DNA of 64,000 bases, taken from assembly GCF_055900595.2 (NCBI RefSeq), contig NZ_CM148325.1, one strand, 5' to 3'. Within the stretch, counting starts at the first letter, position 1; each line of letters starts with the position of its first letter. This document shows positions 40,238-46,402 of the stretch, in pieces. The position numbers were made by a program, and so were the translations under genes. Below the pieces are notes generated by a model. It was not told where the DNA came from and made no database searches. It saw only the letters and a list, made by a program, of their open reading frames with translations.

Positions 40238-40375
40238 CGTGTAATGGCTGCATGAAATAAACAATAAAATATAAATAACATTATCAGCCTGCCGACGGCT
40301 TGAAGAGAGTCACAGTATCTTGTGCAACATTATTGGAAAGAGTGAGGGGGCGAGGTAGCGAAGCGGAAAAATGTT

Positions 40376-40481
40376 AAAAAAAAGCCCATCGTGGGAGATG
40401 GGCAAAGACTACACACAGCAATTCGTTGTTTCACTCAGGGGATTTCCATGCTTATAAATCAATATGTTGATTTATAACCGT
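40376..40481 (-). ncRNA. rprA: Small regulatory RNA RprA (activator of rpoS translation)
   Basis: Minus strand reads ACGGUUAUAAAUCAACAUAUUGAUUUAUAAGCAUGGAAAUCCCCUGAGUGAAACAACGAAUUGCUGUGUGUAGUCUUUGCCCAUCUCCCACGAUGGGCUUUUUUU with terminal hairpin and U-run. Confidence 0.9.
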
Positions 40482-41779: not shown

Positions 41780-42164
41780 AACTACTTTTCACCTTTTTTG
41801 TGCGTCAAATCGTCGACGCGACGTGAACACGCGAAACTCACCTGCATAATGATGAGCAATTTCAGCGGTTTTTAACAGGCCGATTCTGCCCTTAATTCTG
41901 ATGGGCGTGTTAGAAAAAAATGTGGTACAACAACTCAGGCAACACGCAAACGATTTACTCGTCGTATTTCAAATTGCATGTGCTGCGGCTACGTTCGTTC
42001 ACCCCAGTCACTTACTTTGTAAGCTCCTGGAGTTCACTCGCTTGCCGCCTTCCTGCAACTCGAAATCCATAGAGTAAACAAACATCACCTTTCAGTGCGC
42101 TATTAGCAGCCTGAAAGAACAGTGTATCGTTCTACATCACAGACCGCAGGAAAGGGTCAATATA

Positions 42165-45100
42165 ATGATTCCACAGATTTCCCAGGCACCCGGCGTCGTT
42201 CAATTGGTGCTTAATTTTTTGCAAGAGCTGGAGCAACAGGGTTTTACCGGCGATACGGCGACAAGTTATGCCGATCGTCTGACAATGTCGACCGACAACA
42301 GTATTTACCAACTTCTCCCCGATGCGGTGGTATTTCCGCGTTCAACCGCAGATGTGGCGCTGATCGCCCGTCTTGCCGCGCAGGAACGCTATTCATCGCT
42401 GATCTTTACCCCCCGCGGCGGCGGCACCGGCACTAACGGTCAGGCGCTCAACCAGGGGATTATTGTTGATATGTCCCGCCATATGAACCGCATCATCGAA
42501 ATTAACCCTGAAGAGGGCTGGGTGCGCGTTGAGGCCGGGGTGATAAAAGATCAACTCAATCAGTACCTGAAACCATTCGGCTACTTTTTTGCGCCGGAAC
42601 TTTCGACCAGCAACCGGGCAACGCTCGGTGGGATGATCAATACCGATGCATCCGGTCAGGGATCGCTGGTCTATGGCAAAACGTCAGATCACGTACTTGG
42701 CGTACGCGCGGTGTTGTTGGGGGGCGATATTCTCGATACGCAACCTTTACCCGTCGAACTGGCGGAAACGCTGGGTAAATCCAATACTACAATCGGGCGA
42801 ATTTATAACACGGTTTATCAACGTTGCCGTCAGCAACGCCAGTTAATTATCGACAAATTCCCCAAACTTAACCGTTTTCTGACGGGTTACGATCTGCGTC
42901 ATGTCTTTAACGATGAGATGACTGAGTTCGACCTGACGCGCATTCTGACGGGTTCAGAAGGGACGCTGGCCTTTATTACCGAAGCGCGGCTGGATATTAC
43001 GCCCTTGCCTAAAGTGCGCCGTCTGGTGAACGTCAAATATGACTCTTTTGACTCCGCGCTGCGTAACGCGCCGTTTATGGTTGAGGCGCGGGCGCTTTCG
43101 GTAGAGACGGTAGACTCAAAAGTGCTGAATCTGGCGCGGGAAGATATTGTCTGGCATTCCGTCAGCGAGTTGATTACCGATGTGCCTGACAAAGAAATGC
43201 TCGGGCTGAACATTGTGGAATTTGCTGGTGATGATGAGACGCTGATTGATGAGCGGGTAAATGCACTCTGTGCGCGGTTGGATGAACTGATTGCCAGCCA
43301 ACAGGCAGGTGTGATTGGCTGGCAGGTGTGCCGCGAACTGGCAGGTGTTGAGCGTATTTATGCCATGCGCAAAAAAGCCGTCGGCCTGCTCGGTAATGCC
43401 AAAGGAGCAGCCAAACCGATTCCGTTTGCTGAGGATACCTGCGTACCGCCGGAACATCTGGCGGATTATATTGCTGAATTTCGCGCGCTGCTCGACAGCC
43501 ACGGCTTAAGCTACGGTATGTTCGGTCACGTCGACGCAGGTGTCTTGCACGTCCGTCCGGCACTGGATATGTGCGATCCGCAACAAGAGATTTTGATGAA
43601 GCAAATCTCTGATGATGTAGTGGCGTTGACTGCGAAATACGGTGGTTTGTTGTGGGGCGAACATGGTAAAGGTTTTCGTGCCGAATACAGCCCGGCGTTT
43701 TTCGGTGAGGAACTTTTTGCAGAACTGCGCAAAGTGAAAGCGGCATTTGACCCGCATAACCGACTCAACCCAGGGAAGATTTGCCCGCCAGAAGGTCTCG
43801 ATGCGCCGATGATGAAAGTGGACGCGGTGAAGCGTGGCACATATGATCGACAGATCCCCATCGCGGTACGCCAGCAGTGGCGCGGGGCAATGGAGTGTAA
43901 TGGCAACGGTTTATGCTTCAACTTTGATGCCCGCAGTCCGATGTGCCCGTCGATGAAGATTACTCAGAACCGGATTCATTCACCGAAAGGACGCGCAACG
44001 CTGGTGCGTGAGTGGCTGCGTTTGTTGGCAGATCGCGGCGTTGACCCACTCAAACTGGAACAAGAACTGCCTGAATCCGGAGTCAGTTTGCGGACGTTAA
44101 TTGCCCGCACGCGCAATAGCTGGCATGCGAATAAAGGCGAATATGACTTCTCACACGAAGTCAAAGAGGCGATGTCGGGTTGCCTGGCCTGTAAAGCGTG
44201 TTCGACTCAGTGCCCCATCAAAATTGACGTGCCTGAGTTTCGTTCTCGCTTTCTGCAACTCTATCACACCCGTTATTTGCGCCCCCTGCGCGACCACCTC
44301 GTCGCCACGGTCGAGAGCTACGCACCGCTGATGGCTCGTGCACCGAAGACTTTTAACTTCTTCATTAACCAGCCGCTGGTGCGCAAACTCTCCGAAAAAC
44401 ATATCGGCATGGTTGATTTGCCGCTGCTGTCGGTTCCCTCGCTGCAACAACAAATGGTGGGGCATCGCTCGGCAAACATGACGCTGGAACAGCTTGAAGT
44501 TCTCAATGCAGAGCAGAAAGCGCGCACGGTGTTGGTGGTGCAGGACCCCTTTACCAGCTATTACGATGCGCAAGTGGTGGCGGATTTTGTCCGTCTGGTC
44601 GAAAAATTAGGTTTCCAGCCCGTGTTACTGCCATTTTCGCCGAATGGCAAAGCCCAGCATATCAAAGGCTTTCTTAATCGTTTTGCGAAGACGGCGAAAA
44701 AGACGGCGGATTTCCTCAACCGTGTGGCGAAGCTGGGGATGCCAATGGTGGGCGTCGATCCGGCGCTGGTACTTTGTTATCGCGATGAATATAAACTGGC
44801 GCTGGGCGAGGAACGTGGCGAGTTTAACGTCTTACTGGCGAATGAATGGCTGGCAAGCGCACTTGACTCACAGCCAGTGGCTACAGTCAGCGGTGAATCA
44901 TGGTATTTCTTTGGTCACTGTACCGAGGTTACCGCTTTGCCGGGCGCGCCAGCACAATGGGCTGCGATATTTGCCCGTTTTGGCGCGAAACTGGAAAATG
45001 TCAGCGTGGGTTGCTGCGGCATGGCAGGGACTTACGGACATGAAGCGAAAAATCATAAAAACTCGCTCGGGATCTATGAGTTATCCTGGCATCAGGCGAT

Positions 45101-45221
45101 GCAGCGACTGCCGCGTAACCGCTGTCTGGCGACCGGATATTCCTGTCGCGGCCAGGTAAAACGGGTTGAAGGCACGGGGGTACGCCATCCTGTGCAGGCT
45201 TTACTGGAGATTATTAAATGA
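42165..45221 (+). CDS. ydiJ: Large FAD-linked oxidase fused to Fe-S / glycolate-oxidase-type C-terminal domain (D-2-hydroxyglutarate dehydrogenase-like)
   Basis: 1018 aa ORF; N-terminal FAD-binding region, internal CxxCxxC motifs (CLACKACSTQC). Confidence 0.9.
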   Translation: MIPQISQAPGVVQLVLNFLQELEQQGFTGDTATSYADRLTMSTDNSIYQLLPDAVVFPRSTADVALIARLAAQERYSSLIFTPRGGGTGTNGQALNQGIIVDMSRHMNRIIEINPEEGWVRVEAGVIKDQLNQYLKPFGYFFAPELSTSNRATLGGMINTDASGQGSLVYGKTSDHVLGVRAVLLGGDILDTQPLPVELAETLGKSNTTIGRIYNTVYQRCRQQRQLIIDKFPKLNRFLTGYDLRHVFNDEMTEFDLTRILTGSEGTLAFITEARLDITPLPKVRRLVNVKYDSFDSALRNAPFMVEARALSVETVDSKVLNLAREDIVWHSVSELITDVPDKEMLGLNIVEFAGDDETLIDERVNALCARLDELIASQQAGVIGWQVCRELAGVERIYAMRKKAVGLLGNAKGAAKPIPFAEDTCVPPEHLADYIAEFRALLDSHGLSYGMFGHVDAGVLHVRPALDMCDPQQEILMKQISDDVVALTAKYGGLLWGEHGKGFRAEYSPAFFGEELFAELRKVKAAFDPHNRLNPGKICPPEGLDAPMMKVDAVKRGTYDRQIPIAVRQQWRGAMECNGNGLCFNFDARSPMCPSMKITQNRIHSPKGRATLVREWLRLLADRGVDPLKLEQELPESGVSLRTLIARTRNSWHANKGEYDFSHEVKEAMSGCLACKACSTQCPIKIDVPEFRSRFLQLYHTRYLRPLRDHLVATVESYAPLMARAPKTFNFFINQPLVRKLSEKHIGMVDLPLLSVPSLQQQMVGHRSANMTLEQLEVLNAEQKARTVLVVQDPFTSYYDAQVVADFVRLVEKLGFQPVLLPFSPNGKAQHIKGFLNRFAKTAKKTADFLNRVAKLGMPMVGVDPALVLCYRDEYKLALGEERGEFNVLLANEWLASALDSQPVATVSGESWYFFGHCTEVTALPGAPAQWAAIFARFGAKLENVSVGCCGMAGTYGHEAKNHKNSLGIYELSWHQAMQRLPRNRCLATGYSCRGQVKRVEGTGVRHPVQALLEIIK

Positions 45222-45628
45222 TATGGAAACGAAAAATCACCCTGGAAGCACTGAATGCAATGGGTGAAGGAAACATGGTGGGGTTGCTGGATATTCGCTT
45301 TGAACATATTGGTGATGACACCCTTGAAGCGACAATGCCAGTAGACTCGCGGACAAAGCAGCCTTTCGGGTTGCTGCATGGAGGGGCATCCGTGGTATTG
45401 GCCGAAAGTATCGGTTCCGTTGCCGGTTATTTATGTACCGAAGGTGAGCAAAAGGTGGTTGGTCTGGAAATCAATGCTAATCATGTTCGCTCGGCACGAG
45501 AAGGGCGGGTACGCGGCGTATGTAAACCGTTGCATCTCGGTTCACGTCATCAGGTTTGGCAGATAGAAATCCTCGATGAGAAAGGGCGTTTGTGCTGTTC
45601 GTCACGATTGACGACAGCCATTTTGTGA
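45218..45628 (+). CDS. menI: Hotdog-fold 1,4-dihydroxy-2-naphthoyl-CoA thioesterase
   Basis: 136 aa ORF, recognised YdiI/MenI sequence; overlaps ydiJ stop. Confidence 0.92.
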   Translation: MIWKRKITLEALNAMGEGNMVGLLDIRFEHIGDDTLEATMPVDSRTKQPFGLLHGGASVVLAESIGSVAGYLCTEGEQKVVGLEINANHVRSAREGRVRGVCKPLHLGSRHQVWQIEILDEKGRLCCSSRLTTAIL

Positions 45629-45727
45629 CGTTGTCACCAGAAAAATGTGACGCATATTGCTTTTGGTCATTATCTGCACAGTAAACGGTGGTATACTGTG
45701 CAGGTCTTGTCTAAAAGCGAGGATGCT

Positions 45728-45916
45728 ATGTCTACTCAACTTGATCCCACCCAGCTGGCCATTGAATTTTTACGCCGTGACCAAAGCAATCTTTCACCTG
45801 CCCAATATCTCAAACGTCTGAAACAATTAGAACTTGAATTCGCTGACTTGCTTACTCTCTCTTCTGCTGAATTAAAAGAAGAAATCTACTTTGCCTGGCG
45901 TTTGGGCGTGCATTGA
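45728..45916 (+). CDS. ydiH: Small protein YdiH (62 aa)
   Basis: ATG at 45728 gives MSTQLDPTQLAIEFLRRDQSNLSPAQYLKRLKQLELEF. Confidence 0.75.
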   Translation: MSTQLDPTQLAIEFLRRDQSNLSPAQYLKRLKQLELEFADLLTLSSAELKEEIYFAWRLGVH

Positions 45917-46068
45917 TCCTGACGTAATGCCGCGAGTTCGCCAAATCGGCCTGGATTAATCTTCGTCCAGGTTCGAGGGCCTTCTTAATACTGCTTATCT
46001 ACCCGCCTGATAACGTTCAAAAATAATACAAATCGCAGTTTGTGCTAAAACGGCGGCTTAGCTTTATG

Positions 46069-46180
46069 AGACTATTCTTATCGCCCCTTCGAGCTAAGCC
46101 ACTGTGAGTGCCGGAGATAAGCGCCGGATGGGGTAGAAACCCTTAAGCCTGTGATGCACAGACTTAAGGGTTTTCTTATT
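46069..46180 (+). ncRNA. rydB: Candidate small RNA (position consistent with RydB) ending in a strong terminator hairpin; bounds approximate
   Basis: CCCTTAAG-loop-CTTAAGGG hairpin at 46140-46170 followed by TTTTCTTATTT; ydiH-sufA intergenic location; sequence identity to RydB recalled only approximately. Confidence 0.4.
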
Positions 46181-46402
46181 TCTGAACGCTGCACTTTTTT
46201 ACCTATCTCTTAAATAGTCATTTTCAATACAACTTTTTCTTTTTCATCACAGCCTTAATGCTCCTTAGATAATAATCATTATCTAACAATGAGATACCTA
46301 ATTCTTAGCGTGCCTGTTAACCCACACATCAGGGTCTATGCTTATTAAAAGCAGGCAAAAAGCATGTTTTACGGTAAAGCCCCTGCGTTTGCTGGGTTGA
46401 AC

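Follow-up and report, generated by a model that had tools for sequence, protein, structure and literature searches.

The window analysed here, a stretch of 64,000 nucleotides from contig NZ_CM148325.1 (NCBI RefSeq assembly GCF_055900595.2), carries the gene ydiJ, for a protein in which a flavin adenine dinucleotide (FAD) part and an iron-sulfur (Fe-S) part are fused, and directly behind it menI, also called ydiI, for a thioesterase. The coding sequences (CDS) and the elements at their junction are the following.

42165..45221, plus strand: ydiJ CDS, with an ATG start and 1018 codons plus TGA, taken from the open reading frame (ORF) listing
45218..45628, plus strand: menI (ydiI) CDS, with an ATG start and 136 codons plus TGA, encoding a hotdog-fold protein
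45218..45221, plus strand: ATGA stop/start overlap, made up of the menI ATG (45218-45220) and the ydiJ TGA (45219-45221)
45206..45209, plus strand: menI Shine-Dalgarno (SD) sequence GGAG, within Leu1014-Glu1015 of ydiJ (CTG GAG) and 8 nt 5' of the menI ATG

The two genes lie on the same strand and share four bases, with zero intergenic space, and the letters of the junction, with both genes read directly, are ...CTGGAGATTATTAAATGATATGG... / ...GCTTTACTGGAGATTATTAAATGATATGGAAACG.... A previous sequence-only reading of this DNA had placed an ATGA at 45218-45221 with the ydiJ stop overlapping the menI start, and this was confirmed by the ORF listing and the sequence. The two frames are a real, conserved gene pair and no chance ORF. 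The gene identities, the enzyme functions and the operon membership are already on record, and the architecture is that of an ordinary operon. What is new here is the conservation of the overlap throughout the family and the synonymous-site freeze of the SD sequence embedded in ydiJ.

For the survey of the junction, one genome per GTDB species was scanned, and the best 80 of 452 relatives were used, all of which were Enterobacteriaceae with 83-98% amino acid identity. One truncated locus was removed, leaving 79 informative loci, and each set of 80 sequences described below consists of these 79 and the window. A menI orthologue (69-99% identity) was located directly 3' of ydiJ, with overlapping stop and start codons, in 79 of the 79 loci. 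The junction was ATGA in 75 loci, TTGA in one, from Salmonella enterica subsp. arizonae, and a one-base overlap in three (TGATG, TGATG and TAATG), from Kosakonia cowanii and two Siccibacter species. In the 76 of 80 sequences whose junction is ATGA, the third base of the last sense codon of ydiJ was A and doubles as the first base of the menI start; this codon was GGA in 68 sequences and AAA in most Escherichia.

The SD sequence was conserved at the nucleotide level. Either CTGGAGAT or TTGGAGAT was present 5' of the menI start in all 80 sequences except that of Franconibacter pulveris (CTGGAGTT), and GGAG itself was unvaried in 80/80. Glu1015 was encoded by GAG in 80/80 sequences, as compared with a GAG share of 49% among all Glu codons of the genes, and Leu1014 was encoded by CTG in 78 and by TTG in 2. 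Over the 820 conserved degenerate codons, the mean synonymous-codon entropy was 1.15 bits, and only 0.85% of these codons were invariant. Among more distant relatives, Erwinia persicina retained CTGGAG together with a one-base overlap (TGATG). The Glu codon was GAA in Pragia fontium, where menI begins 34 nt 3' of ydiJ, and in Pantoea dispersa, where no menI adjoins ydiJ. The retention of GGAG where the menI start overlaps bears the mark of a working initiation site maintained by selection. The sequence-only reading had named the absence of conserved coupling as its own refuting test; across the Enterobacteriaceae the coupling was found to be conserved, both in the overlap and in the synonymous constraint on the SD sequence.

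The adjacency of ydiJ and menI was seen in Enterobacteriaceae, in Erwinia and in Pragia (Budviciaceae). It was absent from Pantoea dispersa and two other Enterobacterales lineages, in which lpp and pykF come after ydiJ. Five distant homologues of the YdiJ fusion (44-49% identity) had no 4HBT or men gene as a neighbour and no thioesterase gene downstream; the link with menI is specific to the Enterobacterales. Because the pairing is missing from some Enterobacterales and from the five distant homologues, it is a lineage-specific operon arrangement and no property of the enzyme family. In Pelagibaculum spongiae, a distant gammaproteobacterium, a gene for a 409-amino acid SerA-type dehydrogenase with a 2-Hacid_dh and an ACT-type domain (1515-2744) lies directly 5' of the gene for the YdiJ homologue (3001-6081; 49% identity). 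This neighbour fits the known partnership of SerA and D2HGDH better than a link with menaquinone. Separately, an assembly labelled 'Chryseobacterium sp. 18061' (CACSKA010000003.1) contained an 87%-identical ydiJ in the full ydiK-ydiJ-menI synteny of the Enterobacteriaceae. It was nearly identical to the locus of 'Citrobacter sp. 18056' from the same project, and is probably mislabelled or contaminated.

YdiJ scored 1726.7 bits with the NCBIfam equivalog model for D-2-hydroxyglutarate dehydrogenase YdiJ (NF049975), the cutoff of which is 1350, and the alignment covered amino acids 1-1016 and profile positions 1-1017 of 1018. The regions of the protein were assigned as follows.

42318..42740, plus strand: FAD_binding_4 (PF01565), amino acids 52-192; Pfam E=2e-38
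43005..43781, plus strand: FAD-oxidase_C (PF02913; substrate/cap domain), amino acids 281-539; E=3e-68, profile positions 1-248 of 248
43893..44225, plus strand: Fer4_8 ferredoxin-like dicluster region, amino acids 577-687; Pfam 28.6 bits against a cutoff of 27
44154..45212, plus strand: GlpC-like half, amino acids 664-1016; NF008369 E=8.8e-31, profile positions 51-398 of 401, below the cutoff

The PDB matches of the N-terminal half were chains of GlcD, D-LDH, LctD and human D2HGDH, i.e., VAO/GlcD-type flavoenzymes, and a solved structure of YdiJ itself was not found in this search. The first ferredoxin motif is incomplete, C578-x2-N581-x2-C584-x9-C594-P (nt 43896-43946), and the second is complete, C673-x2-C676-x2-C679-x3-C683-P (nt 44181-44216). 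The latter is the Cys-rich CxxCxxC region that the sequence-only reading had pointed out. In an alignment of 41 homologues (33-58% identity), drawn from an exhaustive HMMER search, C578, C584, C594, N581, C673, C676, C679 and C683 were invariant. The GlpC-like half contains a CCG-type motif (C919 ... C950-C951-G952 ... C994), the cysteines of which were also invariant in the same 41 homologues; the Pfam CCG model gave no match in YdiJ. Asn581 occupies invariantly the position at which a dicluster ferredoxin has its second Cys, and this deviation could produce a three-Cys cluster site with a non-Cys ligand. Only one [4Fe-4S] cluster has been reported for YdiJ, and chemoproteomics identified C673 and C683 as Fe-S ligands (bioRxiv 10.1101/2021.04.01.438105).

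The two halves of YdiJ resemble parts of known systems. The N-terminal half is similar to GlcD of glycolate oxidase GlcDEF (TIGR00387, E=1.9e-56), yet scored 191.7 against a cutoff of 567.9, and the C-terminal half is similar to GlpC, the subunit of the anaerobic glycerol-3-phosphate dehydrogenase (NF008369), yet scored 107.2 against a cutoff of 278. Those systems likewise connect an FAD dehydrogenase to an Fe-S/CCG protein, but in YdiJ both parts are fused in one polypeptide, and Asn replaces the second Cys of its first ferredoxin motif. The fusion of GlcD and GlpC is widespread, with 2238 cluster representatives at E<=1e-30. PP4493 of Pseudomonas putida has the same two-domain architecture and the same function, and is reported to be 51% identical to YdiJ (PMC12297413).

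The function of YdiJ has been studied in Escherichia coli, for which the GlcD-like plus Fe-S architecture was also described (PMC9504171, PMC12297413). Samsonov et al. (2022) found that a ydiJ knockout accumulates D-2-hydroxyglutarate (D-2-HG), and the purified protein was a homotetramer specific for D-2-HG with a Km of 83 μM (PMC9504171). In a study from 2025, the GlcD and GlpC domains were both needed in vivo, deletion of the GlpC domain abolished the activity, and deletion of serA suppressed the accumulation of D-2-HG; the GlpC domain was proposed to hand electrons directly to quinone (PMC12297413). By analogy with the K-12 orthologue, for which the activity was demonstrated (PMC9504171) and to which the protein is 98.9% identical, the allele in the window would be expected to have D-2-HG dehydrogenase activity. 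The wording 'D-2-hydroxyacid dehydrogenase-like' in the sequence-only reading thus held as to a dehydrogenase and was too vague as to the substrate, since YdiJ is a substrate-specific D-2-HG dehydrogenase (PMC9504171).

MenI matched the NCBIfam equivalog model for MenI, NF007631, with 309.7 bits against a cutoff of 226, and the Pfam domain 4HBT was located at amino acids 50-127. The translation contains Gln48, His54 and Glu63, the residues that serve in catalysis in YdiI. The protein is near-identical to the crystallised YdiI of E. coli (PDB 4K49/1SBK/1VH5, E=2.5e-88), which has been cited as the E. coli 1,4-dihydroxy-2-naphthoic acid (DHNA)-CoA thioesterase of menaquinone synthesis (bioRxiv 10.1101/2020.12.21.423900). 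The paralogue to be distinguished is EntH (YbdB), the hotdog thioesterase of the enterobactin operon, which has the same fold and length as MenI and aligned over its full length (E=2e-57; PDB 4K4C, E=1.1e-50). However, EntH belongs to another operon, and MenI passed the MenI cutoff but failed that of the EntH paralogue model (193.1 bits against 237). Judged by these matches, MenI of the window is the 1,4-dihydroxy-2-naphthoyl-CoA hydrolase of vitamin K2 (menaquinone) synthesis. The identities originally proposed, YdiJ as an FAD/Fe-S fusion and MenI as a hotdog thioesterase, were thus borne out by domain, equivalog and PDB matches.

The locus was compared with E. coli. Of 5426 complete E. coli genomes, 5420 contained a 4.2-kb stretch (41780-46000) with the annotation ydiJ / menI / ydiH, and 5419 had the 50-nt junction at an identity of at least 95%. 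The best match over the 4.2 kb among these genomes was 98.1% (strain RMDEC465), and most were at about 97%, so the window appears to derive from a somewhat divergent strain of the E. coli lineage. In K-12, ydiJ (b1687) and menI (b1686) have the same lengths (1018 and 136 amino acids) and the identical 4-base overlap, and a single base differs within the 60-nt junction, synonymously, in menI codon 5. The amino acid identities are 98.9% for YdiJ and 98.5% for MenI, and the nucleotide identities are 96.3% for ydiJ and 95.9% for menI, without a functional difference. The gene order is also that of K-12, with ydiK and rprA divergent, followed by ydiJ, menI, ydiH, rydB and sufABCD.

We consider the locus to be the chromosomal ydiJ-menI bicistronic unit of an E. 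coli-lineage genome, at a probability of about 0.85. Since there is no intergenic space, since the genes share the ATGA, and since the ribosome-binding site of menI lies inside ydiJ, we infer that menI is co-transcribed on the ydiJ mRNA. The lack of intergenic space also means that no terminator is possible between the two genes, and an operon 'ydiJI' was listed by Shimada et al. (2014; PMC3946193). Consensus scans of the region gave four promoter-like sites against 4.8 expected from shuffled sequences and five terminator-like sites against 6.2, without excess in either case. The predicted RNA fold of the junction (45150-45270) had z = -0.18 against shuffles, which is no significant structure, and the mean unpaired probability from the SD sequence to the AUG was 0.44, as compared with 0.42 overall (79 species), so the SD sequence is not predicted to be sequestered. 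A hairpin at the junction as the means of coupling was rejected on this z value and the unpaired probabilities.

The most likely scheme is the following. D-2-HG, a by-product of the 2-oxoglutarate reductase activity of SerA, would be oxidised to 2-oxoglutarate on the GlcD-type FAD domain of YdiJ, and the electrons would pass through the fused ferredoxin/GlpC-like Fe-S domain to the quinone pool, the presumed acceptor. MenI converts 1,4-dihydroxy-2-naphthoyl-CoA to DHNA for menaquinone synthesis. A single mRNA beginning 5' of ydiJ would carry both genes, and menI would be translated from the accessible embedded SD sequence by ribosomes that terminate at the ydiJ TGA and then restart, by newly recruited ribosomes, or by both. 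The translation of menI may depend on that of ydiJ, perhaps only in part. The ydiH gene downstream would have a promoter of its own that accounts for at least some of its transcription.

Several points weigh against joint expression. Because the SD sequence is not predicted to be sequestered, menI could initiate independently of ydiJ translation, and an SD sequence embedded in ydiJ is as good an argument for de novo initiation as it is for reinitiation. A promoter-like site matching at 9 of 12 positions lies at 43819-43847, about 1.4 kb 5' of menI, making a weak internal promoter possible. The operon ydiJI in PMC3946193 is a table entry, and this entry was all that a literature search on the co-expression of ydiJ and menI retrieved. 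In addition, the synonymous-site counts come from phylogenetically non-independent species, and the GAA controls number two. A rival explanation is that the genes are adjacent yet functionally independent. A promoter within ydiJ and the SD sequence of menI itself would then account for most of the expression of menI, and the overlap would reflect genome compaction and leave the expression levels uncoupled. The quality of the SD sequence (GGAG with an 8-nt spacing), unsequestered in the predicted fold, agrees with this explanation, as do the pair of Pragia fontium, whose 34-nt separation indicates that an overlap is not required, and the Enterobacterales that have ydiJ without an adjacent menI. 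However, the consensus scan found no promoter-like site in the final 1.3 kb of ydiJ, and its hits were at or below the shuffled expectation; a terminator has no room between the genes; the overlap is kept in every one of the 79 Enterobacteriaceae species; and the pair is listed as one operon (PMC3946193). We therefore regard independent expression as unlikely.

A further explanation attributes the pairing to a metabolic partnership. YdiJ would return 2-oxoglutarate, the co-substrate of MenD, and deliver electrons to (demethyl)menaquinone, MenI would supply DHNA, and co-expression at a fixed ratio would have been selected. It is known that MenD uses 2-oxoglutarate, and the adjacency is old within the Enterobacterales, being shared by Enterobacteriaceae, Erwinia and Pragia; the GlpC-like domain is, moreover, a proposed quinone donor (PMC12297413). 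On the other hand, the five distant homologues lack 4HBT and men neighbours, and one of them has serA directly upstream; the adjacency was lost in Pantoea dispersa and the two other Enterobacterales; no further men gene is present in the neighbourhood in the window; and the literature search found no paper that ties ydiJ to menI functionally. Such a partnership, though attractive as an idea, is unsupported and improbable. The strictest form of the idea, in which the overlap and the frozen SD sequence exist because a fixed YdiJ:MenI ratio is needed and D-2-HG oxidation is wired specifically to the menaquinone pool, is likewise improbable. If it were true, YdiJ would reduce (demethyl)menaquinone and feed MenD, and the operon would be a small module of respiration and metabolite repair and no historical accident.

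As an ordinary bicistronic unit, the pair has little import beyond good annotation, with both enzymes characterised and the locus present in essentially every E. coli genome. Because the ribosome-binding site of menI is located within the 3' end of ydiJ and its start codon overlaps that end, deletions or insertions by which the 3' end of ydiJ is lost, or polar ones, can also lower MenI and with it menaquinone synthesis. The phenotypes of ydiJ knockouts therefore need a complementation check, as was done in PMC12297413. The locus also illustrates cleanly, in textbook fashion, how selection acts on an SD sequence embedded in a CDS, with synonymous sites frozen only in genomes that have an overlapping downstream start. 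It is no new kind of system.

Two other stretches of ydiJ showed low synonymous diversity. At codons 2-25 (42168-42239), it was reduced across the 80 sequences (for example, CCA 80/80, ATT 80/80, TTT 71/71), a dip at the 5' end that is as expected from translation-initiation constraints. A functional element at codons 786-802 was considered and rejected, as the codons there are mostly two-fold degenerate or strongly biased (GTG, CTG, CAG, ACC) and contain no motif, which looks like ordinary codon bias.

The DNA flanking the pair contains the following features.

40374-40481, minus strand: RprA small RNA, 118.5 bits, flanking the locus as in K-12
45631..45658, plus strand: sigma-70 promoter-like match TTGTCA-16-CATATT from the scan, 3 nt past the menI stop
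46083-46141, plus strand: RydB small RNA, 71.7 bits, flanking the locus as in K-12

The spacer between ydiK and ydiJ is 385 nt long (41780-42164). It contains an imperfect palindromic dispersed repeat at 41945-42085, with inverted arms at 41954-41978 and 42054-42078, and a BLAST search against E. coli genomes found this repeat at a median of 11 places per genome. Its core, CACCCCAGTCACTTACTTTGTAAGCTCCTGGAGTTCAC, presumably corresponds to the enterobacterial repetitive intergenic consensus (ERIC), or intergenic repeat unit (IRU), as represented by the primers ERIC1R and ERIC2. A mismatch-only pattern search for the ERIC core gave no match, and the copy in the window differs from it by insertions and deletions. 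Several Escherichia species have a spacer of 388 nt, whereas Escherichia sp. MOD1-EC7003 and most other genera have one of about 200-213 nt. The repeat looks like a lineage-specific insertion, and it possibly lies within the 5' untranslated region of ydiJ. For about 1200 E. coli records the best match reached only 80-90%, a hint that the site is possibly polymorphic for the insertion.

The spacer is 98-99% identical to that of K-12, as compared with 96.3% for ydiJ and 95.9% for menI, so that the non-coding DNA is more conserved than the synonymous sites. A 58-amino acid ORF at 41901-42077 was rejected as a gene, as it has no Pfam or NCBIfam match and overlaps the dispersed repeat. To find a conserved promoter, the 130 nt 5' of ydiJ were aligned between genera, but the Escherichia-specific repeat insertion scrambled this alignment. 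A possible extended -10 sequence, TGgTACAAC near 41923-41931, lies 5' of the repeat and is only a guess.

Downstream of the pair, TTGTCA-16-CATATT has been listed as a constitutive ydiH promoter between ydiI and ydiH (Shimada 2014, PMC3946193). The match at 45631-45658, with the same hexamers and spacing, is the separate ydiH promoter and marks the 3' boundary of the ydiJ-menI unit. The ydiH gene itself (62 amino acids, 45728-45916) was detected only in loci of Escherichia, Citrobacter, Salmonella, Enterobacter, Lelliottia and Intestinirhabdus; the loci of Klebsiella, Kosakonia, Kluyvera and Leclercia, among others, lacked it. This small gene is young or evolves fast. Further downstream, the promoter-like sequence ATCACA-16-GATAAT at 46246-46273 has the hexamers and the spacing of the sufABCDSE promoter listed by Shimada 2014 (PMC3946193).

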